Source: a virus
Taxonomy: Duplodnaviria; Caudoviricetes
Length of the DNA stretch: 64,000 nucleotides
Virus record (IMG/VR): IMGVR_UViG_3300020477_000013
Coordinates: 96,001 to 160,000 of that record
Direction: 5' to 3' (one strand)
The notes under the pieces were generated by a model, which saw nothing but the letters and a program-made list of their open reading frames with translations, had not been told where the DNA came from and ran no database searches. The position numbers and the translations under genes were made by a program. This document shows positions 50,372-64,000 of this stretch, in pieces; position 1 is the stretch's first letter, and every line of letters begins with the position of its first letter.

Positions 50372-50527
50372 ATGTCTGACACAGTAGTTGCATCATTAAT
50401 AATTTTAGGATTCACTGTCACGGGTATATTTTTAGGTGCATGGTTTGCCGCACGGGGGTTCGAGAAATCGCTTATTCAAATGATGGATGATCCTGATGCA
50501 CCGTGGAACAAGGAGGATGAAGAGTGA
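50372..50527 (+). CDS. 51-aa single-TM protein (not in ORF track)
   Basis: MSDTVVASLIILGFTVTGIFLGAWFAA...; GTGA overlap with next gene. Confidence 0.6.
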   Translation: MSDTVVASLIILGFTVTGIFLGAWFAARGFEKSLIQMMDDPDAPWNKEDEE

Positions 50528-50898
50528 GAATTACAAAGAAGCAGCTAAGGCAAGTCATTCGTGAAGCAGTCGAAGAAAATGAGCTGCTCGGCCTTACGGG
50601 CCCATGGCATGAAGTCGTAGCTGCATACATAGCTCGTGGTCCCGGTAATGGGAGTCAGTCTGCAACAAATATGGTGCTTAATAAGTTACACATGGGCCCG
50701 GATCTATGGCGTATGCAAGAGGATGTTTTAGAGGACATGCTTATTGAGCTTGGGCCAAATGCCACCCCTGAACAAATTGATGCGGTGAGTATTGAATTTC
50801 GCGATGGCGTTCGTGCCAATAAGTGGATGCCTCAAACCAAGGAAGAAATGGAGGCTGATTGGGCCCGCGGCGGAAAGCCTCGTGCGGATTACAGTTAG
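50524..50898 (+). CDS. Leader-family protein 1
   Basis: GTG start; MRITKKQLRQVIREAVEE. Confidence 0.8.
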   Translation: MRITKKQLRQVIREAVEENELLGLTGPWHEVVAAYIARGPGNGSQSATNMVLNKLHMGPDLWRMQEDVLEDMLIELGPNATPEQIDAVSIEFRDGVRANKWMPQTKEEMEADWARGGKPRADYS

Positions 50899-50906
50899 GG
50901 TGTTAG

Positions 50907-51152
50907 ATGAAAATTACACGTAGCCAACTTAGAAGAATCATCCGAGAAGCGATATTGCTAGAAGACAAAGAGGGAAAAGGAAAATGCCCTGATGATGGTT
51001 GTGTTCAAAAGCGCTCGAAGGGCTGGGTTATTATCTCTAACAAGACCGGAGAATGCTGGGGCAGAAGTAAGAAGCAGGGAGGCGAGTGTACATATTATGG
51101 CTCAAGGGAAAAAGCTGAAGCAGCGCTTGGCGCTTATCATGCAGGTGGGTAA
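50907..51152 (+). CDS. Leader-family protein 2 (Cys-containing cargo)
   Basis: MKITRSQLRRIIREAILLE. Confidence 0.8.
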   Translation: MKITRSQLRRIIREAILLEDKEGKGKCPDDGCVQKRSKGWVIISNKTGECWGRSKKQGGECTYYGSREKAEAALGAYHAGG

Positions 51153-51401
51153 ATGAAGATGTCTGGCAAACAGTTGAGAAAGATTATTCGAGAGACGTTA
51201 TCATTGGACCTTGAGGTTGGTGACGTAATTCTAACAGGCCGATTCAAGAATAAGCGCACTGTCGTTAGGGAACTAGGGACTGATGATCTAGGTCAACCAA
51301 CCGTTAACGGGATGAAGGTCTTATCTTTTCGCATTGAAAAACTGATGCCAAAAAGTAAGTGGAGTAAGAAGACACTGGAAGAGATAGGGGAAGACGAATG
51401 A
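51153..51401 (+). CDS. Leader-family protein 3 (KOW/SH3-like cargo)
   Basis: MKMSGKQLRKIIRE; VGDVILTGRFKNK. Confidence 0.8.
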   Translation: MKMSGKQLRKIIRETLSLDLEVGDVILTGRFKNKRTVVRELGTDDLGQPTVNGMKVLSFRIEKLMPKSKWSKKTLEEIGEDE

Positions 51402-51685
51402 GAATAGGGTTATCAAATTTGAGAATGTTGATTAGAGAGGCATTGGAGGTGTCTGATGAAGAGATTAGGGCATTTCTTTCTGACCAGGCTGCAACTTACC
51501 ATCAGGACCACAGTCTAGACATTGATGGTGATGAAATTCCGGATGCATCCGCTATTCGTGAACTACTGCAGGCCGATTTTCTAAATAACTTTAGTCATAT
51601 CTCAATTAGCGATTATGCTGATCTTATTGACAGGTTATCTGTGATGCCTGACGTCAAGTGGTCACGCCCTGTGATGATGGTGTAG
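51398..51685 (+). CDS. Leader-family protein 4
   Basis: MRIGLSNLRMLIREALE. Confidence 0.75.
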   Translation: MRIGLSNLRMLIREALEVSDEEIRAFLSDQAATYHQDHSLDIDGDEIPDASAIRELLQADFLNNFSHISISDYADLIDRLSVMPDVKWSRPVMMV

Positions 51686-51692
51686 GTTATAG

Positions 51693-51989
51693 ATGTGGCC
51701 GAAGGGGTATCAACTTAAATGGTTTCGAAGGGAACTTCCAAGAAAAGAAGGTCCTGCCCCGCCTATGAGACCCGGTTTCGGCCAAACACCCCTTAACGTA
51801 ATACAGGATGGTGATAAATTTTACGTTGGGACCTACTTTGTTTTACCTGATGGGTCTAGGAAACCATATACAGTTGAGAGTCAATATTTCTCCACGGAGA
51901 AAGAAGCCAAAGTTGTATTGTCAAGAATGACAGGCGGAAAAATGAAGGAGTCACTACTGCGTGCTTATGTAAGAGAGATGCTGGGCTAA
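51693..51989 (+). CDS. Hypothetical protein with C-terminal tag
   Basis: Ends MKESLLRAYVREMLG. Confidence 0.7.
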   Translation: MWPKGYQLKWFRRELPRKEGPAPPMRPGFGQTPLNVIQDGDKFYVGTYFVLPDGSRKPYTVESQYFSTEKEAKVVLSRMTGGKMKESLLRAYVREMLG

Positions 51990-53147
51990 ATGAGTAATGA
52001 TAAAATATCTGCATTTTACATAATGACAGAACCTGAGAAGATGGGTTACCCATATATTGAATCGATCACCTCTGTGCTGTCTTTTGCCGACGAGGTGGTT
52101 CTGGTGATGGGTAGAGATGAACCGGCTAGCGAGAAAAAGATTGACCAGTTGGCACGTTCTATTCCTCGGCAAAAGTCAGTTAAAATAGTGAAGACCCATG
52201 CTTGGCCAGAATTCGGATGGAACTATAATATAATGAGAGATCATATTCAACGCGGTTTGGACGAGTGTACACATGACTTATGTTTAAAGGTGGATTGTGA
52301 CTATGTCTTTAGAGATCAGCATTGTGATGAGATCCGTTCAGCAATTCAAATTCATGCACAGGATAATCATTTAGTAACCTTTGGCAGGGTCAATTTTTCA
52401 TGTTTAGGAAAAGCAGATTATCAACCAGCGATAGATCACACGCCTTGTTACGTTATTAATAAACGTGCATTGAGAGATGATGGCATAGAGTGTGCTATAT
52501 CCAATGAGTCGGGATCGAACCAACCTATTTTCATGAAAGACGAAAGGGTCCTAGATGTGTCTTCCGGTAAGGACCTCAAGGTGCTACCCCTAAGTCCTAT
52601 GTTACCAGATAGCCTAGAATCCTGGGTTTATCATTACCTTGTGATATGTCCAGTAAATTATTCATACACTTTCATGACTGCATCAAGAATTGCTAAGACG
52701 TGGTCTGAGTGGCATAGGGCTATACATCTCAGGTTTGGTAATCTCCGCATGCCGAATTTCGATTTAGATGATATGCATCAATCAATCAAGAATTTTGCGG
52801 CTTATCATTTCCAAGCAAAGATTCCATCCCTGGGGCATTGTAGAGACTGGGATGAAATAAGGGGTATTATTTTAGGCTCCAGCGGTGATACTTTAGCGGA
52901 TATGGTCAACAGGGGTATTTTACATTGTAATGACAGAGGTGAACCCCAGGTGTCAGGGGCCATGACAATGCAACTTGTAGACCACCCTGCATGTATGAGA
53001 CATGTATTACAGGGCATTTCATCCGACAAGTGGGGATTTAATAACTTTAACCTGCCTGAACCTCCCTCGAGGGGATTAACGCATGAAGGTGCGGCTGCCA
53101 TATATGAGAAGTGGTTAGGGGATATTGGTAGTTACTTGAATGAATAA
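51990..53147 (+). CDS. GT-A (family 2-like) glycosyltransferase
   Basis: GYPYIESITSVLSFADEVVLV; LKVDCDYVF (DxD). Confidence 0.7.
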   Translation: MSNDKISAFYIMTEPEKMGYPYIESITSVLSFADEVVLVMGRDEPASEKKIDQLARSIPRQKSVKIVKTHAWPEFGWNYNIMRDHIQRGLDECTHDLCLKVDCDYVFRDQHCDEIRSAIQIHAQDNHLVTFGRVNFSCLGKADYQPAIDHTPCYVINKRALRDDGIECAISNESGSNQPIFMKDERVLDVSSGKDLKVLPLSPMLPDSLESWVYHYLVICPVNYSYTFMTASRIAKTWSEWHRAIHLRFGNLRMPNFDLDDMHQSIKNFAAYHFQAKIPSLGHCRDWDEIRGIILGSSGDTLADMVNRGILHCNDRGEPQVSGAMTMQLVDHPACMRHVLQGISSDKWGFNNFNLPEPPSRGLTHEGAAAIYEKWLGDIGSYLNE

Positions 53148-53269
53148 ATAAACCCCCCCGCAACAACCGGGATTTTAATTCATTTTTAAGTGTCCCTTAT
53201 CGGTTGCATGTGATATTTATTTGCAGAATTGAATTATGGTATTCATATGATATCATCTAGGGGTTTAAA

Positions 53270-53377
53270 ATGAGTGAATTTTTATGGGGCTTTGTTGCGG
53301 GTGCGGTTGCTTCTCCTTTTGCATGGGAAGGCCTTAAGTGGTGCTTCCGAAAGGTGAAGGAAGCCACTAGTAAATAA
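53270..53377 (+). CDS. 35-aa membrane peptide (not in ORF track)
   Basis: SD AGGGG; MSEFLWGFVAGAVASPFAWEGLKWCFRKVKEATSK. Confidence 0.5.
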   Translation: MSEFLWGFVAGAVASPFAWEGLKWCFRKVKEATSK

Positions 53378-53443
53378 GTGGTATTATATTAAAATTTGCG
53401 TTAGCGTGGGATAATTGGTCTGGGCCCACGAGGGGAAAATAAA

Positions 53444-53704
53444 ATGAGACTATCAAAAAATCAATTAAGACAAATCATTCGAGAATCGCATAGTGAGTCG
53501 ATGTCGGGTGTGAATAGTCAGGTTAGAGAGTCACTCAGCTCTCACGAAGAAAAAGCTCAGGCGGACTCCTTCGCCATGTTTCCCGGTAACACTATCATGG
53601 ACTTGGAATCACTTCACGACTTGTGGTATGGTCGCTTTACAAGTGATGAAAACTTGATACTTGACCAGGCAATTGCACTTTTGAACAGGGAGCTCAGGGG
53701 GTAA
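53444..53704 (+). CDS. Leader-family protein 5
   Basis: MRLSKNQLRQIIRES. Confidence 0.8.
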   Translation: MRLSKNQLRQIIRESHSESMSGVNSQVRESLSSHEEKAQADSFAMFPGNTIMDLESLHDLWYGRFTSDENLILDQAIALLNRELRG

Positions 53705-53706
53705 TA

Positions 53707-53988
53707 ATGCAAATATCACGTAAGAAGTTAAGAAGAATCATTAGGGAATCGTTGCTTCAAGAGTACGGTCCTGAATCTCGTGGGGAGCCCGGGCACAGAG
53801 GTGCAGATGGAAACTGGGTCGATCCTGGCATGGATGGTTACAATCCATACAAGGACAAGTCTCTGGCACCTGGTAACGGTTGGCCCCCTGAAGAGAGATC
53901 GGCAGCTATTAGAGCGTATACAGGCAGAGATGGTTACATTGCCAACTCTCAAGTGGACAAAAGCTGGGTGCATCCAGCATTTCGATAA
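53707..53988 (+). CDS. Leader-family protein 6
   Basis: MQISRKKLRRIIRESLLQE. Confidence 0.8.
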   Translation: MQISRKKLRRIIRESLLQEYGPESRGEPGHRGADGNWVDPGMDGYNPYKDKSLAPGNGWPPEERSAAIRAYTGRDGYIANSQVDKSWVHPAFR

Positions 53989-53999
53989 GAGATAAACTA

Positions 54000-54362
54000 G
54001 TGAAAATCACAAAACGACAACTCAGACGAATTATTCGGGAATCAATCACGGGCACGACAATTTATGTCGAGAAGAGTCCATACGGTGGGACTATGATTGA
54101 AGATGAGAATGGCGAATATCTTTCTGTGGGAGAGATGGTAAAATCCTTATTAGACTCAGGTGAATCAGACTTCTTTCACGATGCTTTAGGGCTACAGGAA
54201 CTCATGGCAGCCCATAGCCGTGGTGTTCAGGGTGGTATGCAGAAGTGGGACTCTGATGTGTTCGAACAATACTACAGCCTAGACATGGATAAAATGATTG
54301 ACACATATGCCGGTGCTAATGGATTACAAGTCAAATACATCCCCATGGGAGAGGATTACTAA
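54000..54362 (+). CDS. Leader-family protein 7
   Basis: GTG start; MKITKRQLRRIIRES. Confidence 0.8.
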   Translation: MKITKRQLRRIIRESITGTTIYVEKSPYGGTMIEDENGEYLSVGEMVKSLLDSGESDFFHDALGLQELMAAHSRGVQGGMQKWDSDVFEQYYSLDMDKMIDTYAGANGLQVKYIPMGEDY

Positions 54363-54363
54363 A

Positions 54364-54633
54364 ATGAAGATCACAAAAAGACAACTTAGAAGAATCATCA
54401 AGGAAGAGAAAGCGAGGCTTCTTATAGAAATGAATCCCGCTGTTGAGGAGGGAATCTCACGTGGCGTGCAGAATGGCATTTGGGGCTGGCTCGAGCGCGA
54501 GTTTGCCCAAGACATGACCGGTGAAGATGTGTGGAATAATCCTACATACACCGAGAGTATTGCACACGCATTGGAAACAATTGCCAAGGAAGTACGGACC
54601 GCAGGGACGCAAGAAGGTACGTACGGGGGGTAA
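54364..54633 (+). CDS. Leader-family protein 8 (true start 54364)
   Basis: MKITKRQLRRIIKEEKARLLIE. Confidence 0.85.
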   Translation: MKITKRQLRRIIKEEKARLLIEMNPAVEEGISRGVQNGIWGWLEREFAQDMTGEDVWNNPTYTESIAHALETIAKEVRTAGTQEGTYGG

Positions 54634-54634
54634 A

Positions 54635-54922
54635 ATGAAGATCACAAAAAGACAGCTCAGACGAATTATCAAAGAACAACTTCAACTTCTTAGTGAGGAG
54701 GGCTATGATAGTTATCGTGATAGTAGGCGAGAGGCTGGCTATGGTGGAACAACTTGGAAGAGTAAGCAAGACTATAGGCGTCGAAGAGCCCAACAGATAA
54801 AGTATGCAGAGGAAGTCACAGCCCAGGGAAGAGAAGATGCCCTTGCCGGCCGGCCTAAAGACGCTAGCATAGGGCACCTTGCGTACCATGAGGCATACGA
54901 CGAAGCGCTCAAGGAAGCATGA
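54635..54922 (+). CDS. Leader-family protein 9 (true start 54635)
   Basis: MKITKRQLRRIIKEQLQLLSE. Confidence 0.85.
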   Translation: MKITKRQLRRIIKEQLQLLSEEGYDSYRDSRREAGYGGTTWKSKQDYRRRRAQQIKYAEEVTAQGREDALAGRPKDASIGHLAYHEAYDEALKEA

Positions 54923-54923
54923 T

Positions 54924-55259
54924 ATGAAGATCACAAAGAGACAACTCAGAAGAATCATCAAGGAAGAGCTTCAATCCATGACAGTTGACAAGCGAGATCA
55001 GCTTATGGATGCGCTGGAAGATAAATACGGACTCCAGGTAAGAACTACCGAAGAGTTTGGTTCTGGTCCTGGGGGCGTATGGATTGCTGCTGAGTCAGCT
55101 TCCGCACAAACGCCGGACGGCTTACCACTGTTTGACTACTACTTGGACATGGATCCATATGAATTTGGTGTACACCCGGAATTTTCAAGGTTTATTGCAC
55201 CTTATGGTTTTTATGCAGAGTGGAATGATCCAGGAACATTAATGTTGTGGAGGGTGTAA
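54924..55259 (+). CDS. Leader-family protein 10 (true start 54924)
   Basis: MKITKRQLRRIIKEELQS; aromatic-rich globular cargo. Confidence 0.85.
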   Translation: MKITKRQLRRIIKEELQSMTVDKRDQLMDALEDKYGLQVRTTEEFGSGPGGVWIAAESASAQTPDGLPLFDYYLDMDPYEFGVHPEFSRFIAPYGFYAEWNDPGTLMLWRV

Positions 55260-55260
55260 C

Positions 55261-55608
55261 ATGAGAATCACAAAGAGGCAGCTAAGAAGAATTATTAAGG
55301 AAGAAAAGGCGAAGCTGATAAGAGAGTCATTTTCGCCTGATTCTATCGCTGAGTTTGATAGGGAAATTAATTCCAATCTGGAACAGGGGAAGTTGTACCT
55401 TGACATGGGTGATACTTCGATGGCTCAGATGTACGATGATGATGCATATTCTTTAGAGGCCATTAGAGATATGGCCATTCAAGACAGGGCAGCTGGTGAG
55501 CCTATGGGATCAAATTCACTTCGTAATTTGGTTAGCCGTTTAGACACAGCCGCACGTGAAAAGATACCAGACGACTTCTATTACTGGATAATCGGCGAGG
55601 ATTATTAA
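55261..55608 (+). CDS. Leader-family protein 11
   Basis: MRITKRQLRRIIKEEKAKLIRE. Confidence 0.85.
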   Translation: MRITKRQLRRIIKEEKAKLIRESFSPDSIAEFDREINSNLEQGKLYLDMGDTSMAQMYDDDAYSLEAIRDMAIQDRAAGEPMGSNSLRNLVSRLDTAAREKIPDDFYYWIIGEDY

Positions 55609-55609
55609 A

Positions 55610-56068
55610 ATGAGAATCACAAAGAGGCAGCTAAGAAGAATCATTAGGGAAGCTTATTATGAAGATGCCGAAGACCGAGGATATTTTGACCATGTTGGTG
55701 GTCTCAACGCTCCTAAGCATCCTGATAATGAAGAGTATATGGCTGGGTGGGATCAATCCATCATAGATGATAAGGTCTCCGCGGACCACAAGGCAGAGAA
55801 GGAGATGGAAAGAAGGCTCCAGCCAGCACGCGATAGAACAATGGCAACACTCGATAGATCACGTCAGGAACTGGAGAGTGCCCATGGAATCACTGACGAC
55901 TTGGCCTACGAAGTTGAGATGGGAAGTCTCTTTCTGGCTAAGGAAGATGAGCTCCGTAAGCTGGCCAATGCAAGTGGTGCCCAAGGCCTAGCCGCTAAAA
56001 AGTTATTGGACATGACCCCCCAGCAACGTGCTGCATATAAAAGTTTAATGATTAGGACAACGATGTAG
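55610..56068 (+). CDS. Leader-family protein 12
   Basis: MRITKRQLRRIIREA. Confidence 0.85.
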   Translation: MRITKRQLRRIIREAYYEDAEDRGYFDHVGGLNAPKHPDNEEYMAGWDQSIIDDKVSADHKAEKEMERRLQPARDRTMATLDRSRQELESAHGITDDLAYEVEMGSLFLAKEDELRKLANASGAQGLAAKKLLDMTPQQRAAYKSLMIRTTM

Positions 56069-56087
56069 GTCGTAAATAAGATATTAC

Positions 56088-56348
56088 ATGAAAATCACTA
56101 AGAGACAACTAAGAAGAATCATCAAGGAAGAGAAGGCTAAGCTTCTTAATGAGTATACGCCTGCCGATACCAGCGGGTCAGCTCCTTATTCTAGCCCTGC
56201 AAACATTGAAGAAGAAATAGCAGAACTCGAAAATGCTCTTAACTCTCTATACGTCGCAGGCAGAGCACTTCCTTTTCCGATGGATAGAAGAATCATGGAT
56301 GCTACCGAGATGATCGAGAGGGCGCTCAATATATTACAAGGAAAGTAA
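56088..56348 (+). CDS. Leader-family protein 13
   Basis: MKITKRQLRRIIKEEKAKLLNE. Confidence 0.85.
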   Translation: MKITKRQLRRIIKEEKAKLLNEYTPADTSGSAPYSSPANIEEEIAELENALNSLYVAGRALPFPMDRRIMDATEMIERALNILQGK

Positions 56349-56349
56349 A

Positions 56350-56622
56350 ATGAAGATCACAAAGAGACAACTAAGAAGAATCATCAAAGAAGAGAAGGCC
56401 AGGCTCATGAATGAACAACCTACTCGCCGGCCTGACTATAAGTTTAATCAGGGCGTACAGGGTGAATATGCTCCCGGTGAATCAGTACTTGAGGATTTGA
56501 TGGTCGCGGTTGACGAAGCTATTGCCAACGCCACGGGTCAGATCGATCTAGATTTTCAAGATGGTCCGCTATCGTCTAGACAAGTTGTCAATTTTGTTAT
56601 TCGATCGTTACAGGAAAGATAA
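56350..56622 (+). CDS. Leader-family protein 14
   Basis: MKITKRQLRRIIKEEKARLMNE. Confidence 0.85.
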   Translation: MKITKRQLRRIIKEEKARLMNEQPTRRPDYKFNQGVQGEYAPGESVLEDLMVAVDEAIANATGQIDLDFQDGPLSSRQVVNFVIRSLQER

Positions 56623-56623
56623 A

Positions 56624-57013: not shown

Positions 57014-57014
57014 A

Positions 57015-57299
57015 ATGAAAATCACAAAACGACAACTTCGAAGAATCATCAAAGAAGAGAAGGCCAGGCTTCTATCTGAGGTGACCCCCGGTGAACGTGA
57101 TGATGCTAAGAGGCTTGATGCAGAGTGGGCAGCAAGGGTAAATGCAGAGCAAGGTGCCCTCCAATCTCAAGCTGATATCTCACGTGAGTTAGGCGAATTA
57201 CATAATGCTATCGATCGATTGATTGACGTGATGGGCCGTGATGAAGTAGCCGCTGAGCTTGAGGGAATCGCAGAAGAGATTAGGATGGGAATGGTATGA
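57015..57299 (+). CDS. Leader-family protein 16 (true start 57015)
   Basis: MKITKRQLRRIIKEEKARLLSE. Confidence 0.85.
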   Translation: MKITKRQLRRIIKEEKARLLSEVTPGERDDAKRLDAEWAARVNAEQGALQSQADISRELGELHNAIDRLIDVMGRDEVAAELEGIAEEIRMGMV

Positions 57300-58951
57300 A
57301 AATCACAAAAAGACAACTCAGGCGAATCATCAAAGAAGAGAAGGCCAGGCTCATGGAGTATGGTGGCCGACCTTATGACCCAACTGTTCCTGGAGACTAC
57401 GAGCGATATCGTGATAATCCGACCGGCGACGCGCCTCCGGGTGGCGAGTGGGATGCAAAACTGGAGAAGATGGCCGATGAAGTCGGTGATCGAGCCGCCG
57501 GTGGATACGAACCATCGATGGACGGTTCTCCTGAAGCGTATGCTGACCATATCCTTGATTGGTATGCTGAAGACCCACCACCTCCGCTCGACGAGATGGA
57601 GGGTTTAGCGTTTGCACTGTCAAAGCCCTATTATAGAAAGGTGATTAAGGCCGCGGTTCTCGAGTACATCGGAATGATGACAGAAGGAAGGGCTTTACAT
57701 GAGCAATACCATTCCATGTCACCAGCCGGCAAATCCTTGTCTAGATCGATTAAAGGTAAATTCATGAGGATGTACCCCGACGCCTCGGTCGGGATTGACG
57801 GTCGTGAAGGGTGGATCACAGTCAATGGTAAAAAGGCTATCAATATGTCCCAGGCTAGCGGACGCGGAATGTCAGATGAAGAAATGATAGACAAGATGCA
57901 TGCAGTATATGCCCAGTCACAAGTAGATCCCGATATCCCAACCGCCGACACGAGAATGGATACGTTTATGGAGGGAAAAATGAAAATCTCAAAACGACAA
58001 CTCAGGCGAATCATCAAAGAAGAGAAGTCGAGGGTTTTATCTGAGCGCCGAATGCAAATTGCACCACGACGAAGGCGTAGCGTTCTGTTGACAGAGCGTA
58101 GTTTACGTTACGTAGCACGCCAGGCTATCATCGATCACAACCGAGGTGTTCGAATTGATGAGAATTGGTTTAGTGACGTAGCAAAGAAGGCCAAGGCCTT
58201 TGTCGCCGATAAAGTGGAAGACGCCCAGATAATGTTTAATGACTTCAAGAAGAAGCTCCCGGGTGGTATGGCAAAGCACATATCTAAGGCGTACAAGAAA
58301 ATGATCAGAGATGTCAAAGAGATGACAGACAAGGTCGATTTTGGGCTATACGATTTGAAAGCTATCGAATGGCAGCCAGATTCCATGGAGGAGGCACTAG
58401 AGAACGGCAAGATCGTCAAGAAGTTCTTTGATGACTTTAACATCGACATGGACATCAACGATCTAATGGGTCAAGAGAATTTTGACGCTGATACCGAGTA
58501 TGATCTCAATCAAAAATTTAAGAAATCCCTAAGGGATGTTATGCAACGAACAGAGTTTTACGTGTTCACTGATACTGAGATTGAGAAAACTAAAAAGAAG
58601 ATTGTCGACGCCCTAGGGGAAAAGAAAGGAAAGGCAGTTGCTGAAGAGATGGCAGAAGAGCTAGTTGCAACAATGAAAGAGTACGAAGAAGACGTGCTTA
58701 GTCGCGATTATGCTGATGAAATATCGCTGGCAGTCCGTGGGTATGCCAAGTCCTTAGCCTATGCTGCTGAGCAAGAGTGGGCAAAGAAGATGGATGAGAA
58801 AGAGCGTCGATTAGCTGGCCTAGAGCGTATGAAGATAGCTGATGCCAACGAAAAAGCAGCTTGGAAGAAGGAGGAGCGACGAAAAGATCGCGCCGCTAAG
58901 AAGAAGTACAGCACTGAGCCGGAGGACCGGACAAGGTCTAAGTGGAGCTAA
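57296..58951 (+). CDS. Leader-family protein 17 (551 aa) with a second in-frame leader at 57980
   Basis: MKITKRQLRRIIKEEKARLME; internal MKISKRQLRRIIKEEKSRVLSE. Confidence 0.85.
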   Translation: MKITKRQLRRIIKEEKARLMEYGGRPYDPTVPGDYERYRDNPTGDAPPGGEWDAKLEKMADEVGDRAAGGYEPSMDGSPEAYADHILDWYAEDPPPPLDEMEGLAFALSKPYYRKVIKAAVLEYIGMMTEGRALHEQYHSMSPAGKSLSRSIKGKFMRMYPDASVGIDGREGWITVNGKKAINMSQASGRGMSDEEMIDKMHAVYAQSQVDPDIPTADTRMDTFMEGKMKISKRQLRRIIKEEKSRVLSERRMQIAPRRRRSVLLTERSLRYVARQAIIDHNRGVRIDENWFSDVAKKAKAFVADKVEDAQIMFNDFKKKLPGGMAKHISKAYKKMIRDVKEMTDKVDFGLYDLKAIEWQPDSMEEALENGKIVKKFFDDFNIDMDINDLMGQENFDADTEYDLNQKFKKSLRDVMQRTEFYVFTDTEIEKTKKKIVDALGEKKGKAVAEEMAEELVATMKEYEEDVLSRDYADEISLAVRGYAKSLAYAAEQEWAKKMDEKERRLAGLERMKIADANEKAAWKKEERRKDRAAKKKYSTEPEDRTRSKWS

Positions 58952-58955
58952 AACA

Positions 58956-59219
58956 ATGAAAATCACCAAACGACAACTTAGAAGAATCATCAAAGAAGAG
59001 AAGGCACGAATCCTTAGGGAGATCCGAGATGAACGATCTCCCCAGGGCCGCCAATCTGCTCGTGGTCCCGCTAGCGCCTATGATCAGGGATATGAAGCAG
59101 GCACAAGGGGCGATCGATCTGAAATGCCACTCGAGCAATACGGTACACCTTTCTACGATGCATGGATGGAAGGCTGGGATGACGGACTAGCTTCATTCCA
59201 TGGTGGCGGAAGCTACTAA
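58956..59219 (+). CDS. Leader-family protein 18 (true start 58956)
   Basis: MKITKRQLRRIIKEEKARILRE. Confidence 0.85.
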   Translation: MKITKRQLRRIIKEEKARILREIRDERSPQGRQSARGPASAYDQGYEAGTRGDRSEMPLEQYGTPFYDAWMEGWDDGLASFHGGGSY

Positions 59220-59266
59220 ACGAAACAGGCAATTTTAGCCAACAATATTATAAAGGAGAAATTACA

Positions 59267-59365
59267 ATGAGAAAAGTATTACATAGATTAGTAAATTTAT
59301 TCAATAACTCACACTGCTGCTGCTGCTGTGGTTGCTGTCCTCACCCTGAGAAGTCTTGCTGTTAG
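59267..59365 (+). CDS. 32-aa Cys-rich micropeptide (not in ORF track)
   Basis: SD AAGGAG; MRKVLHRLVNLFNNSHCCCCCGCCPHPEKSCC. Confidence 0.65.
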   Translation: MRKVLHRLVNLFNNSHCCCCCGCCPHPEKSCC

Positions 59366-59376
59366 GGGTACATGAT

Positions 59377-59631
59377 ATGAGAGTCACTAAGCGGCAACTA
59401 AGGCAAATCATTAGAGAAGCTCTTGAAACCGAAATGGAAGAGGGGGATGTACTTGGTGAGGAAGACCTTGAGGAGTACTGGACACCCGGCATAGATACTT
59501 CAGGCCGGGTAGATACCAGCAGGGCAGACAAAAAGCCTACAGGCCAGGAAATGGGTTGCAAAGATCGAAGGACCGGGAAGACTGTTGAGCCGTATTGGCA
59601 ACAGAGAATGGGAAAATGGGTGTGCCCATAA
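59377..59631 (+). CDS. Leader-family protein 19 (true start 59377)
   Basis: MRVTKRQLRQIIREALE. Confidence 0.85.
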   Translation: MRVTKRQLRQIIREALETEMEEGDVLGEEDLEEYWTPGIDTSGRVDTSRADKKPTGQEMGCKDRRTGKTVEPYWQQRMGKWVCP

Positions 59632-59894
59632 TGAAAATTACAAAAAGACAATTAAGAAGAATCATCAAAGAAGAGAAAGCCAAGCTCGTCTCCGAGATAT
59701 CGGCTGAACGGGGTGCTAGCCTGCCTCGTACCCATATGGGCGAGACAATCACACCAGAGAGCGTCGTTGCCGACCTGTTTAATTTAGCAGCTAAGGTAGA
59801 AGCTTTAGGTGAAGATTTCTTTTCTGACAGCGACAGCTTAGCTGATTGGGCGAATAATTTTATGTCCAGACATAACGTTATGCAGGAGAGATAA
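59631..59894 (+). CDS. Leader-family protein 20 (true start 59631)
   Basis: MKITKRQLRRIIKEEKAKLVSE. Confidence 0.85.
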   Translation: MKITKRQLRRIIKEEKAKLVSEISAERGASLPRTHMGETITPESVVADLFNLAAKVEALGEDFFSDSDSLADWANNFMSRHNVMQER

Positions 59895-59901
59895 CATTAA
59901 A

Positions 59902-60150
59902 ATGAAAATCACGAAGCGACAACTCAGAAGAATCATCAAGGAAGAGAGGGCCAGGTTACTTAATGAAGGGCCTAACCTAGCGCTTCGTAATGCGATCATG
60001 GATACTTACGAGGGCGTGTATGGAGATCTAATCTCACAAGGTGCCGATCCATCGGTTGCACAAGATCGAGCTAGTGATGCAGTTATGTCAGAGGTTGAAG
60101 CCTGGTTGGATGCCGTAGGAATTCCACGCACATATGTGGGATTATCATAA
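59902..60150 (+). CDS. Leader-family protein 21
   Basis: MKITKRQLRRIIKEERARLLNE. Confidence 0.85.
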   Translation: MKITKRQLRRIIKEERARLLNEGPNLALRNAIMDTYEGVYGDLISQGADPSVAQDRASDAVMSEVEAWLDAVGIPRTYVGLS

Positions 60151-60401
60151 TGAAAATCGCCAAACGTCAGCTAAGAAGAATCATCAAAGAAGAGAAAGCA
60201 CGATTGTTGACAGAGGATAGCATTAATGCTGCAGAAGATCGACTTTTCGCCGCTATAGATGACTTTGTACAAGTGGTAGATGAGGAACTAGGGTACGATG
60301 TTCCACTTCACGTGTTACGGCGGCAGGTTGATGATGTAGTTGGCTCAGCTTTTGCACAGTTTGAAGCGGACCAAAAAGCAGAGGATGACTTAAGATCATG
60401 A
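60150..60401 (+). CDS. Leader-family protein 22
   Basis: MKIAKRQLRRIIKEEKARLLTE. Confidence 0.85.
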   Translation: MKIAKRQLRRIIKEEKARLLTEDSINAAEDRLFAAIDDFVQVVDEELGYDVPLHVLRRQVDDVVGSAFAQFEADQKAEDDLRS

Positions 60402-60760
60402 GAATCACAAAACGACAACTCAGACGAATCATTAAAGAAGCCATGGAAGATGAGCCCATCCGCATGATACCAGGTGATTCATTCCCTGCAGATGCGCTTA
60501 AATCAAGGCGCTCCAGGAAACCCCAACCCTCCGGCGAATTCAGAGACACAATCGTTATGAGTCCAACCGGCGATACTCTCCTAGTCGGTGGGCAGGAAGT
60601 GGCTCTTCAAAATGCTGTAAAAGAACTCGAGATACAGTCAGGTCAGCCAGTGTCGGCCATACAAGCAGGTGATATCAACGCGAAGCTATTAAGACAGTAT
60701 GGTCAAGGATACGTTGAGCTTCCAATATCTTGGTCGCCCAATACAGGATGGAAATTCTAA
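60398..60760 (+). CDS. Leader-family protein 23
   Basis: MRITKRQLRRIIKEAME. Confidence 0.85.
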   Translation: MRITKRQLRRIIKEAMEDEPIRMIPGDSFPADALKSRRSRKPQPSGEFRDTIVMSPTGDTLLVGGQEVALQNAVKELEIQSGQPVSAIQAGDINAKLLRQYGQGYVELPISWSPNTGWKF

Positions 60761-61017
60761 TGAAAATCACGAAAAGACAGTTAAAGCAGATCATCAAAGA
60801 AGAGAAGGCAAAGCTCAATGAAGGTGGATGGAGTAAGGGTCCAGAGCGCCTTAGGGAGATTAGGGAAGGAATGCTAGAGGCCTTATTCCAGTCCATCGAT
60901 GCTCAAGCCTCTTATGATCCAGAAGCCCTGGGAATTATTAAGTCTGAAATAATGATGCGAGGCCTAGATTTTAGAAAAGAGGCACTGGCTTACTTACGAG
61001 AACTAGAGGGTTATTAA
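60760..61017 (+). CDS. Leader-family protein 24 (true start 60760)
   Basis: MKITKRQLKQIIKEEKAKLNE. Confidence 0.85.
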   Translation: MKITKRQLKQIIKEEKAKLNEGGWSKGPERLREIREGMLEALFQSIDAQASYDPEALGIIKSEIMMRGLDFRKEALAYLRELEGY

Positions 61018-61018
61018 A

Positions 61019-61333
61019 ATGAAAATTACAAAGAGACAGCTTAGAAGAATCATCAAGGAAGAGAAAGCCCGGCTTGTAAATGAGATCCAGGCTGAGAAAG
61101 ACGTCAGGCAGCTGACCCTTAATCAAGGTGAGGTTGATAAGGTTGAGGCCATGCGATCAGCACTGGATAGAATGTTCTTTGAGTATCGAAAAATAAATTC
61201 AATACCCCCACAATGGCTTGATGACTCCAACGGGTTCGGTACATCCAGGTATGATAAACTAGAAGAACTGTTGATGGATGCAGGCGAAGAAATGTCAGAC
61301 TTGGTACATGATATGAAGAAAGTGGGAATATAA
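61019..61333 (+). CDS. Leader-family protein 25
   Basis: MKITKRQLRRIIKEEKARLVNE. Confidence 0.85.
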   Translation: MKITKRQLRRIIKEEKARLVNEIQAEKDVRQLTLNQGEVDKVEAMRSALDRMFFEYRKINSIPPQWLDDSNGFGTSRYDKLEELLMDAGEEMSDLVHDMKKVGI

Positions 61334-61413
61334 GACTCAGAGTGAGGTTCAAAGGTTGAACCTCGTATCATTAACAAAAAATTATCTATATTAAAAAATG
61401 GGAGGCACCTAAA

Positions 61414-61995
61414 ATGATAGTTACAAAGAGACAATTGAGAAGAATAATCAAGGAAGAAGCACGCCGTCTAATGGAGGACAGCATTGACAGTGAGCTTGAT
61501 CACCTTAAGAAAAATGTGCATGATGATATTGAGCACATTCGTGATCTAAAAGATGACATTAGGGATGATCATGAAGAAGAGCTTCGTGCGGAGAAGGCAC
61601 GCAAGGATGAGTCGCGCCGGAGGACAAAGTCTAAGCTACGCAGGATTGTTCGTCGTACTATCAACGAAGAGCATGCAGACTGGGGCATGGGAAAAGATGA
61701 AGATTCACGTACACACCATGGCGAAAAAGATTATACAGGCCATAAGGGTGATCATTCAAAGACTCATCCAGGTGAATTAGACTATGAAGATGATGCAGCT
61801 GGAAGAGCACATGATGCAATTGCTGCTATTCATGACCTGGCATCTGCAGCAGGCGTTGAGCTTGATGTTACGGCCGGGGATGCTCTTGACAGTGAGGATG
61901 CAACGATCATCGCTATGGAAGGCAGGCTCCGCCGACAGGCACTAAAGAAGCGTATTAAAAGATTGACGAGGGATGCGATCCGCCGAGGACTATAA
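61414..61995 (+). CDS. Leader-family protein 26 (His/Asp-rich)
   Basis: MIVTKRQLRRIIKEEARRLME; internal KLRRIVRRTINE; C-terminal LKKRIKRLTRDAIRR. Confidence 0.85.
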   Translation: MIVTKRQLRRIIKEEARRLMEDSIDSELDHLKKNVHDDIEHIRDLKDDIRDDHEEELRAEKARKDESRRRTKSKLRRIVRRTINEEHADWGMGKDEDSRTHHGEKDYTGHKGDHSKTHPGELDYEDDAAGRAHDAIAAIHDLASAAGVELDVTAGDALDSEDATIIAMEGRLRRQALKKRIKRLTRDAIRRGL

Positions 61996-61996
61996 G

Positions 61997-62239
61997 ATGA
62001 AAATCTCAAAACGACAACTAAGAAGAATTATCAAAGAAGAGAAGGCCAAGTTACTAAAAGAGGCACCGACTCCTGAATTTGGTATATTCGATCAGTATTA
62101 CCTAGCTGATCTACTGATGGAAGAGGTCGAAAGTTTTATGGACCAGACAGGGGTGGATAGCTTCGGGCCGGCCGAGGTCGAGGATATGCGTAATGCAGTC
62201 ATGGCGGCACTTGATACGATTGTGAAACAGGTGAGCTAA
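61997..62239 (+). CDS. Leader-family protein 27 (true start 61997)
   Basis: MKISKRQLRRIIKEEKAKLLKE. Confidence 0.85.
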   Translation: MKISKRQLRRIIKEEKAKLLKEAPTPEFGIFDQYYLADLLMEEVESFMDQTGVDSFGPAEVEDMRNAVMAALDTIVKQVS

Positions 62240-62259
62240 ACCTAAGTGAGGTTAAAATT

Positions 62260-62652
62260 ATGAGAATTTCAAAACAACAATTAAGAAGAATCATCAAAGA
62301 AGAGCGCATGCGAATTCTTTATGAGGAAGTTGAAGAGATGGAGATCAAGGTAGACACTAATGAACACCACTGGCCTCGTGTAGAGTGGTCGAACATTGGT
62401 GAGCTTACCGATAAGTGGGCAGACCAAGAGAGAAATGCTTGGGATAAAGGTGATACGTCTATGCTTCCGGAGAAGCCGGAAGACGTCAGCATATCCGCAT
62501 GGGAAGCAGAGCATAAGGCTGCTTGGGAAGACCAGGTAGAAAATGCTGCATTAGATTTAGAGGCGGAGTTAACCACACGGATCCGCAGGCTAGCTCTTAA
62601 AACGATGCAGGAATTTACTGATTCGCTGATAGCGGGTGATTATTCTGCCTAG
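62260..62652 (+). CDS. Leader-family protein 28
   Basis: MRISKQQLRRIIKEERMRILYE. Confidence 0.85.
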   Translation: MRISKQQLRRIIKEERMRILYEEVEEMEIKVDTNEHHWPRVEWSNIGELTDKWADQERNAWDKGDTSMLPEKPEDVSISAWEAEHKAAWEDQVENAALDLEAELTTRIRRLALKTMQEFTDSLIAGDYSA

Positions 62653-62660
62653 TTTGGTAA

Positions 62661-63506
62661 ATGGGGGTGAAGCAGATGCCTAAAGACAACCACAAGAAAT
62701 TTCTATCAGAACTTAAGGACTTATCACCGACAGAGCGCCGTGTTGCTTTAAAACTAGCACGCTCATCACGTCCTTCAGCGCGAAGGTATATAAGGCTTGT
62801 CTTAGAGAATAAGAAATCCTACAGCAAAGCCGGTACGGGTAGTATGTCTGCTAAGGAGGGTGATTCTCGGCACTCCGCCAAAAGAAAAGGGGATTATTTT
62901 CAAGCTAATGTCATCGCTGAGGGAATTTTTGGGTGGTCTGGCGAAAAGATAATGAAGAAGATTGTTGGTAGGAATTATGCACCCCCTATCCGAGTAGATG
63001 CTGCTGCAAAAAATCTCGAGGTTGCGCTTGGGCAGTATGCGACGTCTTATGCGAGGAAGGCTACGCCTCGCCGTGTATCTCCTGATGAATTTGCTCAAGA
63101 AGCAAAGGCAGGTTTAGCTAAGGGCCTGCGGCTATGTACTTCATTTGCAAGGCACGTTGCTACTTCTTTAGACGCTAAAACTGAACCTGCTCAAATCAAG
63201 AGGGAATCTACGGATATTCGGGAAAAAATTCTGCGTGCAAAGATTAGGGAGCTTCTTGTAAAAGAGCAAGTTGTTGGGTATACGGCGCCGCAAGAAAAAA
63301 AGTCTGATGGTGGGGGATACTTGAGCGTAGGTGACATGGGTGTTGATACAACACTCGGTGATGATTCAACGGACGAAGATCAGGCATCAGCTAACCAGGT
63401 AAGAAAGCTAACACAGCAACGCCAACAAGATTTAGATTCTGGTGATACAGTTGATGCAGAAAATGTGGGTCAACAGCTTGGCATGGCCAGGAAGATGAGA
63501 GGGTAA
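62661..63506 (+). CDS. Hypothetical protein with internal leader-like helices
   Basis: ARRYIRLVLE and ILRAKIRELLVKE. Confidence 0.75.
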   Translation: MGVKQMPKDNHKKFLSELKDLSPTERRVALKLARSSRPSARRYIRLVLENKKSYSKAGTGSMSAKEGDSRHSAKRKGDYFQANVIAEGIFGWSGEKIMKKIVGRNYAPPIRVDAAAKNLEVALGQYATSYARKATPRRVSPDEFAQEAKAGLAKGLRLCTSFARHVATSLDAKTEPAQIKRESTDIREKILRAKIRELLVKEQVVGYTAPQEKKSDGGGYLSVGDMGVDTTLGDDSTDEDQASANQVRKLTQQRQQDLDSGDTVDAENVGQQLGMARKMRG

Positions 63507-63507
63507 A

Positions 63508-64000
63508 ATGAGGGTCACACGAAAGCAACTAAGAAGAATTATTAGAGAAACATGGGCCGATGATGATAGAGATTTCTCTGCACCCCCAGGCGAAGAAGAC
63601 TACTACGCTCCCGGTGGAGAAGGTGAGCAGGTTACGGATACACAGCTCAAAAGAGGCTGGGGTTCATGGCTAGAAGAAAGAGGCCTGGAATTTGAAGACT
63701 TGGACGATCTCGCCCTCGCGGCCGGCGCACCTAACAGGACATGGCTAGATTCCATCCCTCCGCATGATGGTTTCATCGGCCCGTTGGATGTTGGGGTGTG
63801 GGTAAAAGATATACAGGCTGCTAAGGAAATATTGTCAACAAGAGCAGGAGACTACAGTTCGTCGCCACATGGTAAGAAGATGAATGAAGGCGTTGACCCC
63901 CGAGGCCTTAAGACATATCTCAAAAGCCTGGGGGTCAAGCGAAGCTTCGGCAACTTGACCGATGTTCTATCAACAGTGTTTAACGAATTCGAGGGTGATG
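63508..64000 (+). CDS. Leader-family protein 29 (3' partial, not in ORF track)
   Basis: MRVTRKQLRRIIRETWADDD...; frame open to window end. Confidence 0.8.
   Translation, partial: MRVTRKQLRRIIRETWADDDRDFSAPPGEEDYYAPGGEGEQVTDTQLKRGWGSWLEERGLEFEDLDDLALAAGAPNRTWLDSIPPHDGFIGPLDVGVWVKDIQAAKEILSTRAGDYSSSPHGKKMNEGVDPRGLKTYLKSLGVKRSFGNLTDVLSTVFNEFEGD

Follow-up and report, generated by a model that had tools for sequence, protein, structure and literature searches.

That diverse internal proteins may share nothing beyond their capsid-targeting sequence (CTS) is established for the T-even phages (PMC3012670, PMC2839356). In T4 the internal proteins are targeted to the core by N-terminal propeptides of 10–20 residues (PMC9026906, PMC5694885), and T4 gp21 cleaves after L/I-X-E (PMC9026906). 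In an uncultured jumbo T4-like phage (contig of 201,585 bp, estimated genome size about 280 kb), about one fifth of the genes is given to leader-tagged, mostly acidic, mutually unrelated small proteins. The window analysed here is a stretch of 64,000 nucleotides (positions 96,001 to 160,000 of the IMG/VR record IMGVR_UViG_3300020477_000013). By analogy with T4 we lean towards reading the leader as a propeptide that targets the capsid and is removable by the protease, like that on T4 internal proteins, but used on an unprecedented scale. The novelty would then lie in the scale and the tag, not in the principle.

The array of tagged genes

Between 50524 and 64000 of the window 29 tagged genes and one internal leader copy (57980) are located, all on the + strand (Table 1), exactly as counted in the initial annotation. 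A six-frame fuzzy search for KITKRQLRRIIKEE, tolerating up to 6 substitutions, returned 28 matches in the window, all from the + strand, the − strand giving none; the total of 29 adds the divergent starts 51153, 51398, 53444 and 53707 to the fuzzy-search matches. With an 18-residue HMM about 40 type-A leader copies scoring above 14 bits were detected on the whole contig; every one lies on the + strand, and almost every one coincides exactly with a start codon. The array, described before as still running at the window edge, extends about 1.2 kb further to about window position 65,170. It is broken by three untagged genes, namely a 98-aa ORF (51693–51989) with a tag-like C-terminal end (MKESLLRAYVREMLG), a 385-aa ORF (51990–53147) without Pfam or PHROG match and the gene at 62661–63506. 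Ten of the 16 genomic copies of ATATTTAT are intergenic (1.0 expected). The T4 late promoter is not in use in this phage, and late co-expression with the head genes is thus without support.

Leader variants had also been assigned to three outlying genes. Those at 13447 and 24452 are real, whereas 15714 (556 aa, ...LRKLILHE) carries only a looser version (MKKLTLKELRKLILHE) whose likeness to the tag was judged by eye. In the same region the pattern phi-[KR]-x-phi-phi-x-E is met by four genes, at 11039 (418 aa), 20802 (90 aa), 22428 (673 aa) and 26219 (427 aa); the four large loosely tagged genes, 15714 included, matched no Pfam or PHROG family. Across the phage at least 51 of about 266 genes have a start of this pattern among their first 30 residues, and its density of 6.4 per 1000 aa in N-termini, compared with about 0.4 elsewhere in proteins, is far above chance.

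Table 1 Features of the tagged gene array and of outlying tagged genes (window positions)
Feature	Position	Strand	Evidence or remark
Tagged gene 1, 124 aa, GTG start, MRITKKQLRQVIREA	50524..50898	+	leader HMM, 28.7 bits
Tagged gene 2, 81 aa, basic cargo rich in Cys	50907..51152	+	leader-bearing ortholog in L014
Tagged gene 3, 82 aa, MKMSGKQLRKIIRET	51153..51401	+	leader HMM; six orthologs
Tagged gene 4, 95 aa, MRIGLSNLRMLIREA	51398..51685	+	leader HMM; ortholog comparison
Two untagged genes, 98 aa and 385 aa, same frame, one stop between	51693..53147	+	
297-nt gap, one ATATTTAT copy at 53214	53148..53443	+	candidate main-array promoter
Tagged gene 5, 86 aa	53444..53704	+	leader HMM; ortholog comparison
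Tagged gene 6, 93 aa	53707..53988	+	leader HMM
Tagged gene 7, 120 aa, GTG start	54000..54362	+	leader HMM; ortholog comparison
Tagged gene 8, 89 aa	54364..54633	+	fuzzy search, leader HMM
Tagged gene 9, 95 aa	54635..54922	+	fuzzy search, leader HMM
Tagged gene 10, 111 aa	54924..55259	+	fuzzy search, HMM; 69% ortholog in G002
Tagged gene 11, 115 aa	55261..55608	+	fuzzy search, leader HMM
Tagged gene 12, 152 aa	55610..56068	+	fuzzy search, leader HMM
Tagged gene 13, 86 aa	56088..56348	+	fuzzy search, leader HMM
Tagged gene 14, 90 aa	56350..56622	+	predicted fold; dN/dS 0.033
Tagged gene 15, 129 aa	56624..57013	+	fuzzy search, leader HMM
Tagged gene 16, 94 aa	57015..57299	+	fuzzy search, leader HMM
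Tagged gene 17, 551 aa, two-module fusion	57296..58951	+	second complete leader at 57980 (residue 229)
Tagged gene 18, 87 aa, leader-linker-RMF-like domain (residues 37–78)	58956..59219	+	
Untagged 32-aa Cys-rich mini-ORF, strong Shine-Dalgarno, inside 157-nt gap	59267..59365	+	
Tagged gene 19, 84 aa	59377..59631	+	92% ortholog, dN/dS 0.047
Tagged gene 20, 87 aa	59631..59894	+	fuzzy search, HMM; ortholog comparison
Tagged gene 21, 82 aa	59902..60150	+	fuzzy search, leader HMM
Tagged gene 22, 83 aa	60150..60401	+	fuzzy search, leader HMM
Tagged gene 23, 120 aa	60398..60760	+	fuzzy search, HMM; ortholog comparison
Tagged gene 24, 85 aa	60760..61017	+	fuzzy search, leader HMM
Tagged gene 25, 104 aa	61019..61333	+	83% ortholog, dN/dS 0.068
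Tagged gene 26, 193 aa, strongly charged cargo	61414..61995	+	fuzzy search, leader HMM
Tagged gene 27, 80 aa	61997..62239	+	fuzzy search, leader HMM
Tagged gene 28, 130 aa	62260..62652	+	fuzzy search, HMM; eight homologs
Untagged in-array gene, 281 aa	62661..63506	+	family sought, none matched
Tagged gene 29, 213 aa, leaves window, end at window-equivalent 64149	63508..64000	+	leader HMM
Outlying tagged gene, 227 aa, MRLTRNILRRLIKEE	13447..14130	+	fuzzy search, HMM, 15.5 bits
Outlying tagged gene, 112 aa, MKITKKELRRIIKEE	24452..24790	+	fuzzy search, HMM, 28 bits
Span of large genes with looser phi-[KR]-x-phi-phi-x-E N-termini	11039..27502	+	regex

A conserved leader in front of unrelated cargos

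The leader is a basic helix of 14–22 residues at the protein N-terminus with a net charge of about +5.5, and its only invariant residues are M1, L8, I12 and E14. The motif phi-phi-x-E occupies residues 11–14 in 347 of 352 unique leader proteins, and a second phi-x-E ends at residue 21–22 in 68% of them (background 21.5%). Two orthologs lack 8 residues, and this deletion brings RRII-R-E back at the same position. A second tag class, MKLLREYIRxLLxE, shows the same behaviour. In two independent predicted folds a confident leader helix (pLDDT 80–88) precedes a disordered linker; for tagged gene 14 these comprise residues 5–21 and 24–42, followed by a two-helix cargo. As modelled, the tag is an isolated helix on a disordered tether.

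Comparison of paralogous leaders gave a pN of 0.046 and a pS of 0.665, which shows selection on the peptide and not on the DNA. A repeat working at the DNA or RNA level (recombination site, translation-initiation element, recent gene conversion), to which the peptide is incidental, would agree with the 31–50 identical nucleotides in a few neighbouring copies and with the translational coupling of the array genes (median spacing 1 nt). However, between copies of the frozen peptide synonymous sites have come close to saturation, the longest exact nucleotide match between copies has a median of 12 nt, and a search upstream of the tagged genes found no conserved motif. As primary explanation such a repeat is effectively refuted and deserves hardly any credence; leader-mediated recombination as a side effect is possible.

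The array cargos are mutually dissimilar and mostly acidic, as had been noted at the outset: BLASTP over about 700 pairs gave no match below E=0.047, and the pI is mostly 4.1–5. Apart from the 551-aa ORF, total protein lengths range from 80 to 213 aa. The cargos are 87% net-negative and under purifying selection (dN/dS 0.03–0.5), and the 347 proteins of this phage and its relatives fall into 172 cargo clusters, the cargos being unrelated by sequence. The sole identifiable cargo is an RMF-like protein, tagged gene 18, which matches PF04957 (26.6 bits, E=6e-6) and has RMF (ribosome modulation factor) as the top three PDB matches of its predicted fold; in its orthologs both PF04957 and the leader are present. 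Such a protein is no obvious candidate for injection, a point counted against a propeptide. Cellular domains behind tags, RMF-like and DUF192, fit modular acquisition. The anti-defence role proposed in the initial annotation is unsupported, since matches to anti-defence or defence-related families were found for none of the cargos. Unsupported too is its proposal that loading extends to whatever ORF gains the leader.

The leader HMM was also applied to relatives. Five related phages of 242–293 kb carry 17–38 leaders and one S77 protease each (5/5), and in public data 4,278 protein clusters have the tag. Between close relatives cargo content differs strongly and array order is scrambled, in line with the modular tag logic first suggested. 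In fusion proteins (the 551-aa ORF; relatives with up to 3 modules) a full leader stands at every module junction, and the best matches in a library of 1.84 billion proteins carry 2–4 copies each. Internal leaders at these junctions would be tolerable if the linker can be cleaved, as proposed below.

Tandem genes on one strand with similar size and composition, and helical predictions for both folded cargos, could also derive from one old tandem-duplicated paralogous family whose C-terminal parts diverged beyond recognition and whose conserved N-terminal helix is functional itself (e.g. in oligomerisation or regulation), without tag-plus-cargo logic. We regard this as very improbable. Even via relatives no similarity between cargos can be detected, unless fusion proteins are used as links in a chain; unrelated known domains and proteins of 400–670 aa bear the same kind of tag, and the second tag class behaves likewise.

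Head-maturation genes and a putative propeptide

The T4-type head module encodes a gp21-family (S77) prohead protease as well as a Gp23-family capsid protein, portal and large terminase, the latter three in the same gene order as in T4. The protease (genome 30278–30880) matches Peptidase_S77 with 92 bits and also phrog_207 (head maturation protease); it aligns to the solved T4 gp21 structure (5JBL) with E=2e-16, and its His and Ser lie within CDHPD and GISSRG motifs. By sequence comparison the capsid protein has a propeptide site QVLRE↓AN at the position of the T4 gp23 cut (FLTE↓AE), with VLRE↓A as its core; the site is kept in the phages immuto (Flavobacterium) and Mel-JY01 (Microcystis). A scaffold-like protein (597 aa, long poly-Glu/Asp runs) starts with MSKLFKEAIAE↓AKQ, the T4 gp22 counterpart being MLKEQLIAE↓AQK. 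The gene immediately 3' of the protease has the N-terminus MSKISKSKLKTLIKE-CLVE-ILTE and obtains 12.5 bits from the leader HMM (genome-scale E about 1e-3); equivalent N-termini are present in five relatives. The likeness of the tag to head-core N-termini is statistically weak in the relatives (0–6 bits), a point counted against a propeptide. At the sequence level the leader end, I12-x-E14, matches the gp21 cleavage motif, and with these genes the T4 analogy of the initial annotation gains its context. Since the tag has no similarity to the T4 CTS MKTYQEFIAE (−4 bits), the link to T4 is drawn by analogy and through the short, common phi-x-E motif.

By this analogy we infer packaging, cleavage and injection of the tagged proteins. 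The basic amphipathic helix on its flexible linker would attach each protein to the strongly acidic scaffolding core while this is being assembled and the gp23 shell has yet to close; the charges of leader (+5.5) and scaffold-like protein (poly-Glu/Asp) are complementary. The protease would cut after I12-x-E14 and, in two thirds of the copies, again at the phi-x-E ending at residue 21–22. The small, mostly acidic mature protein would be freed inside the head, retained in the virion and presumably ejected into the host with the DNA. The array would thus be a hyperplastic library of internal proteins, in which cargos come and go, fuse and change places; the tag would be kept frozen by the need to fit both the conserved core and the protease. 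The residue after E14 (P1') is Glu in two thirds of the leader copies and Ala or Ser at all four T4 sites compared, a difference counted against the propeptide, as were the acidic cargos, which would lie beside DNA, and the heavy load that 50 or more distinct tagged proteins per genome would put on one capsid.

The tagged proteins could instead be core-targeted, cut and expanded scaffold or core parts of a jumbo capsid (analogues of gp67, gp68 and gp22) that are degraded and expelled before DNA packaging, without effector delivery. Like scaffold proteins, their cargos are small, acidic and helical; the core gene adjoining the protease has an N-terminus similar to the tag, and a genome of this size needs a large core. 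However, the distinct cargo families are each under purifying selection, content differs strongly between close relatives, and RMF-like and DUF192 domains stand behind tags. Selection, turnover and known domains point to accessory functions rather than essential structural filler, and we consider such core parts improbable.

Somewhat less improbable, yet still unlikely, is a docking helix that binds a conserved partner other than the capsid and stays on the active protein; such a partner could be a chaperone of host or phage, the anionic inner membrane, a hub protein of the host or a nucleic acid. The leader is basic and amphipathic and resembles a DnaK-binding motif (hydrophobic core, basic flanks), the phage encodes DnaK, DnaJ, GroEL and peptide deformylase, and a leader far more conserved than its cargo implies one common partner of some kind. 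However, Hsp70 is absent from two near-complete related contigs with 38 and 17 leaders; the tag travels with the protease, present in all five, and not with phage Hsp70. Binding to membrane, chaperone or nucleic acid leaves unexplained the invariance of Glu14 and Ile12, the restoration of II-x-E by the 8-residue deletion and the internal copies at fusion junctions.

Comparison with described head proteins

For the propeptide preferred here, the closest described counterparts are the T4 internal proteins IPI, IPII, IPIII and Alt, which likewise have a short N-terminal propeptide common to otherwise unrelated small proteins; their propeptides and the array leader both end in the gp21 motif L/I-x-E (PMC9026906). 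A protease of the gp21 family and a gp22-like scaffold occur in both phages, and T-even internal protein loci, like the array, are hypervariable between relatives (PMC3012670, PMC2839356). In contrast to the T4 CTS (10 aa), the array tag is unrelated, longer (14–22 aa) and strongly basic. The descriptions of IPII and IPIII make them basic proteins, unlike the acidic cargos here. Four such proteins are named in T4 (PMC9026906) and about 30 internal-protein variants are known from T-even phages altogether, compared with about 40 type-A and at least 10 other tagged genes in this one genome. Multi-module fusions with internal tags are found on the side of the array, which is known from sequence alone. 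The T4 gp24 N-terminus MAKINELLRE↓S is stylistically close to MKITKRQLRRIIRE↓S, and counterparts of the T4 gp22 and gp23 propeptide sites are conserved in the scaffold and capsid proteins of this phage; however, gp24, gp23 and gp22 are single structural proteins and not a cargo library.

The giant phages SPN3US, phiKZ and 201phi2-1 have dozens of head-internal proteins in arrays, including a 20-member family in SPN3US; the diverged paralogs gp53 and gp54 have an identical 15-aa N-terminus containing the protease motif, and propeptides bear redundant cleavage sites (PMC5694885, PMC9026906). These families are recognisable paralogs of a different lineage with propeptides of more than 100 aa and the motif A/S/G-x-E, whereas here a T4-like lineage has mutually unrelated cargos. 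In P1 an N-terminal signal of at most 30 aa on DarB (Dar anti-restriction) is enough for a heterologous protein to be loaded into the capsid and delivered (PMC9024508); the few Dar cargos have no consensus tag in common, and gp21-type I-x-E logic is not described for them. In T4-type hyperplastic regions variable small ORFans are reshuffled between relatives by PeSL shuffling (PMC2839356), and array order is scrambled here too; the repeated unit is a promoter with a stem-loop there and solely the coding leader here.

Layout and distribution of the tagged genes

The source contig is linear, 201,585 bp long and 73% complete (CheckV), and its genes are oriented on the + strand throughout; the window corresponds to its positions 96001-160000. 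A fuzzy six-frame search of the window found 28 copies, exclusively on the + strand, of the type-A tag or leader, a basic N-terminal helix of 14-22 residues which is common to the array genes and precedes the remainder of each protein, the cargo. With four more divergent starts added to these matches the main array holds 29 tagged genes, and together with one copy inside an ORF this reproduces exactly the count of the initial annotation. An 18-residue HMM gives about 40 leader copies on the whole contig and places the end of the main array at about window position 65,170, past the window edge where the array had been noted as still running. Two of the three leader variants which the initial annotation had listed outside the array, at 13447 and 24452, are HMM matches; the third, the N-terminal peptide of a 556-aa protein, is similar by eye only and fails the regular expression phi-[KR]-x-phi-phi-x-E.

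Positions of leader copies and other features of the tag system and its surroundings
Feature	Window position	Genome position	Strand	Basis or remark
Main leader array	50524-64000		+	
Internal leader copy	57980		+	inside 551-aa ORF
Satellite leader cluster		83.2-84.4 kb	+	18-residue HMM
Single leader copy		87602	+	18-residue HMM
Single leader copy	13447	109447	+	18-residue HMM
Single leader copy	24452	120452	+	18-residue HMM
Single leader copy		194817	+	18-residue HMM
Type-B leader genes		81.6-89.5 kb (stretch L005:1592-9460)		at least eight consecutive genes
Large proteins with looser tag versions	11039, 22428, 26219			no known family
556-aa protein	15714			similar N-terminal peptide by eye
G-E-D-Y or E-G-Y cargo ends	54330-54362, 55575-55608, 60985-61017			
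98-aa ORF	51693-51989			
Untagged 385-aa ORF	51990-53147			
RMF-like cargo gene	58956-59219			
Cys-rich mini-ORF	59267-59365			32 aa
TGA-interrupted leader gene		160583-160925 (L006:583-925)		just beyond window end
Protein-folding kit	30582-32222, 35279-37150, 42235-43281, 34525-35166			
ATATTTAT copies (examples)	10444, 28690, 38156, 44027, 49167, 53214			

The median spacing between array genes is 1 nt. Cargo C-termini such as GEDY recur because the Shine-Dalgarno sequence of the next gene is often encoded in the last codons of the preceding one, and these G-E-D-Y or E-G-Y ends, which at the tabulated positions embed GGAGGA and a TAA-A-ATG junction, are a coding constraint from translational coupling. 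The sole sizeable gap of the mid-array is occupied by a Cys-rich mini-ORF, whose ribosome-binding site, AAGGAGA, is strong and whose final 17 residues comprise nine Cys, five of them consecutive. A 98-aa ORF has the tag-like peptide MKESLLRAYVREMLG as its C-terminus and is divided by one in-frame stop from an untagged 385-aa ORF; a nonsense codon could have severed the tag from its cargo, or the stop could be read through. The larger ORF has no match in Pfam or PHROGs; it contains VDCDYVF, which is DxD-like, and its N-terminus follows a pattern reminiscent of GT-A glycosyltransferases. A leader-family gene beginning with VRITRRQLGIIIREE contains an in-frame TGA after 42 codons, beyond which the frame is open for 70 more, as far as the following gene; either this is a pseudogene or the TGA is read through.

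A second leader class (type-B, MKLLREYIRxLLxE) also heads cargos that are unrelated. One of them is a DUF192 domain, and another carries a GNAT-like motif (FRGQGWGKKMY) without Pfam detection. The motif phi-[KR]-x-phi-phi-x-E begins within the first 30 residues in at least 51 of about 266 genes, and near N-termini it is 15-fold enriched compared with the rest of the proteome.

The exact leader was found in 57 stretches of about 40 IMG/VR contigs, and the fetched flanks contain 372 matches to the leader HMM. Each of five related contigs (242-293 kb; completeness at least 92% in three, terminal repeats in one) carries 17-38 leader copies and one S77 protease. Arrays in relatives have only a minority of cargos in common with the present genome, in scrambled order. 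In a library of 1.84 billion proteins a leader-dominated profile matches 4,278 cluster representatives, the best of which contain 2-4 leaders each. Among the 54 representatives listed by word-indexed searches there are no informative names except two RMF (JGI), and the leader string was not found in a literature search. A tblastn search of 50,697 phage records with a tagged protein returned noise only, where BLAST may have filtered out the leader as low-complexity sequence, and the three closest deposited relatives, searched with a profile, gave 1, 0 and 7 weak copies and no array; a cultured phage with a leader array was found in neither search. In the cultured Flavobacterium phage immuto (record positions 103789, 117614 and 118612) three genes share a different N-terminus, M..NF.L+.FL.ENKLT (FL-x-E-NKL), which contains L-x-E. 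In this tractable phage the family may represent a counterpart of the tag system that is small and specific to the lineage.

Conservation of the leader and diversity of the cargos

Among 30 window copies of the leader the residues M1, L8, I12 and E14 are invariant and R9 and I11 nearly so, with free variation at synonymous sites of its codons. Comparison of paralogous leaders yielded pN 0.046 and pS 0.665, and the longest exact nucleotide match between copies has a median of 12 nt, reaching 31-50 nt in a few neighbours. Given these rates and the 12-nt median, a DNA repeat or gene conversion was rejected as the primary explanation; a function of the leader as a DNA- or RNA-level element is effectively refuted. 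Across related phages identity is 77-83% for the protease and 39-92% for cargo orthologs, while the leader is nearly unchanged. In the AlphaFold2 models of two members the leader is a confidently predicted helix, which a disordered linker joins to a small helical domain; the cargo of the first model is a generic two-helix fold with pLDDT 69.

The protease gp21 cleaves after L/I-X-E (PMC9026906). The end of the leader fits this specificity of the maturation protease, because phi-phi-x-E occupies residues 11-14 in 347 of 352 copies, a second phi-x-E site ending at residue 21-22 is present in 68% of copies (background 21.5%), and in two orthologs with an 8-residue deletion II-R-E is re-formed at the same position.

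No significant similarity exists between cargos (best E-value 0.047 in about 700 pairs), and 87% of them are net-negative, most with a pI of 4.1-5, so that both the mutual dissimilarity and the mostly acidic character described in the initial annotation hold. The 347 tagged proteins pooled from this genome and its relatives fall into 172 clusters, among them 115 singletons. Descent of the array from one hyper-diverged paralog family, of which the leader would be the common part, seems very unlikely. Orthologs are available for 23 of 38 tagged genes (30-92% identity, in partial flanks fetched from relatives), nearly all with the leader kept. Since these orthologs exist and dN/dS of the cargo genes is 0.03-0.5, the array members are real genes. 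In multi-module fusion proteins the full leader is present at every junction, and a 51-member cargo superfamily was rejected as an artefact of chaining via such fusions.

Searches of Pfam and PHROGs with the 29 array proteins and 10 type-B or variant-tagged proteins detected an RMF-like domain and DUF192 only, and these are the two identifiable cargos. The RMF-like cargo matches PF04957 with 26.6 bits (E=6e-6), just below the gathering cut-off of 27.9. Most orthologs of its gene have precomputed PF04957 matches, always together with the leader, and two were named RMF by JGI. In a Foldseek search of 350,542 PDB chains with its model the top three matches are RMF, at statistically weak E-values of 2.7-6.3.

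Head module, chaperones and expression signals

The virus is T4-like, and the core head set of gp23, gp20 portal, gp17 terminase and gp21 protease is present as a conserved module. Large terminase, portal, a 297-aa protein and the Peptidase_S77 (gp21) protease are followed by small core-position genes, a 597-aa poly-acidic protein resembling the scaffold gp22, and the Gp23-family capsid protein. The closest capsid proteins, about 49% identical, belong to immuto, Microcystis phage Mel-JY01 and an uncultured 484-kb phage. The protease, encoded at genome 30278-30880, matches PF03420 with 92 bits as well as phrog_207, aligns to the solved T4 gp21 (5JBL, E=2e-16) and has the His and Ser motifs. In the capsid protein the site QVLRE/AN, conserved in immuto and Mel-JY01, lies at the place equivalent to FLTE/AE of T4 gp23, and the scaffold-like protein, encoded at genome 33870-35663, starts with MSKLFKEAIAE/AKQ. 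Other T4 N-termini, taken from the sequences, are MAKINELLRE/S (gp24), MLKEQLIAE/AQK (gp22) and MKTYQEFIAE (IPII and IPIII). In T4 IPIII, Asp at residue 10 prevents processing.

The gene immediately 3' of the protease has the N-terminus MSKISKSKLKTLIKE-CLVE-ILTE, and the corresponding genes of five relatives begin similarly; on the leader HMM this N-terminus scores 12.5 bits, which is significant for the copy of the present genome only and not for those of the relatives. It is quite unlikely that the leader serves as a targeting tag on expendable core components and not on effectors. Even cargo made up of core or scaffold material only would show how jumbo T4-like heads are constructed.

A complex prediction for the protease (200 aa) and a 90-aa tagged protein gave no verdict, with a score of 0.02, and speaks neither for nor against an interaction. 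A docking helix for some other partner is a further reading of the leader, and a rather unlikely one; the phage DnaK as required partner was rejected, since Hsp70 is missing from two near-complete relatives.

The window also encodes a protein-folding kit. Strong matches in both Pfam and PHROGs identify GroEL and DnaK/Hsp70, while genes for a DnaJ-like J-domain and a peptide-deformylase-like protein were recognised by their N-terminal sequence only. The phage Hsp70 occurs in only two of five relatives.

Upstream of the leader genes no conserved promoter was found, and sigma-70-like and terminator-like sites in the array do not exceed the level of shuffled sequence. The T4 late promoter TATAAATA is not used by the phage (three copies, none near starts). 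The motif ATATTTAT is intergenic in 10 of 16 genomic copies versus 1.0 expected, a tenfold enrichment, and lies mostly 8-45 nt upstream of starts, ahead of structural and non-structural genes alike, among them genes for head and tail between 37.7 and 58 kb of the genome. It is a candidate promoter element in place of TATAAATA.

Proposed role and comparison with T4

The best-supported mechanism, and a somewhat probable one, is that the leader acts as a T4-style capsid-targeting propeptide removable by the protease. The basic helix would dock onto the acidic core, a gp21-type cut after E14 or E22 would free the cargo within the head, and ejection would presumably carry it into the host. Several observations count against a propeptide: Glu occupies P1' behind E14 in two thirds of the leader copies, the cargos are acidic, each genome has a very large number of them, and an RMF-like protein would be odd to inject.

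More tentative is the wider proposal that in a clade of T4-like phages of about 280 kb a universal 14-residue label might load each virion with 40-60 different pre-made proteins from a natural pool of over 4,000 cargo families, and that these would enter the host together with the DNA as first-strike effectors of host takeover or counter-defence. The label might also be a cleavable linker for polyprotein fusions and a recombination handle for cassette swaps, a protein-level analogue of the integron. If this is true, thousands of injected phage effectors could be found in metagenomes by the sequence of the tag alone. As a capsid-loading signal, one short motif would mark thousands of unannotatable metagenomic ORFans as virion-delivered, the packaged-protein strategy could grow to about one fifth of phage gene content, and a new compact natural module for targeting and release of foreign proteins in large capsids would be at hand. 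The tag is of interest because a large class of metagenomic ORFans would become interpretable and directly testable.

Anti-restriction proteins such as T4 IPI* and P1 Dar belong to the virion-delivered class, as do host-modifying enzymes such as T4 Alt. The propeptides of T4 head proteins comprise 10-20 residues (PMC9026906, PMC5694885), and the first 10 residues of IPIII are enough for head targeting (PMC9026906, PMC5694885, PMC3012670, PMC2839356). The internal proteins of T-even phages are diverse, with the capsid-targeting sequence as sole common part (PMC3012670, PMC2839356). As in T4, a gp21-family protease occurs in the phage together with a scaffolding core, its short N-terminal leader resembles the T4 propeptides in the invariant I12-x-E14 (compare L/I-x-E), and one tag is placed on otherwise unrelated proteins (172 clusters among 347), as in the T4 internal proteins. 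However, the leader has no homology to the T4 targeting sequence MKTYQEFIAE (-4.1 bits on the leader HMM), and the mostly net-negative cargos differ from mature IPII and IPIII, which are small and basic. The principle is already known from the T4 internal proteins, the head paralogs of SPN3US and phiKZ, and P1 DarB. New are the tag itself, the second tag class, the polyproteins with internal tags and the acidic cargos, as well as the scale: a genome carries about 40 type-A tagged genes and at least 10 with other tags, and the clusters in nature exceed 4,000.
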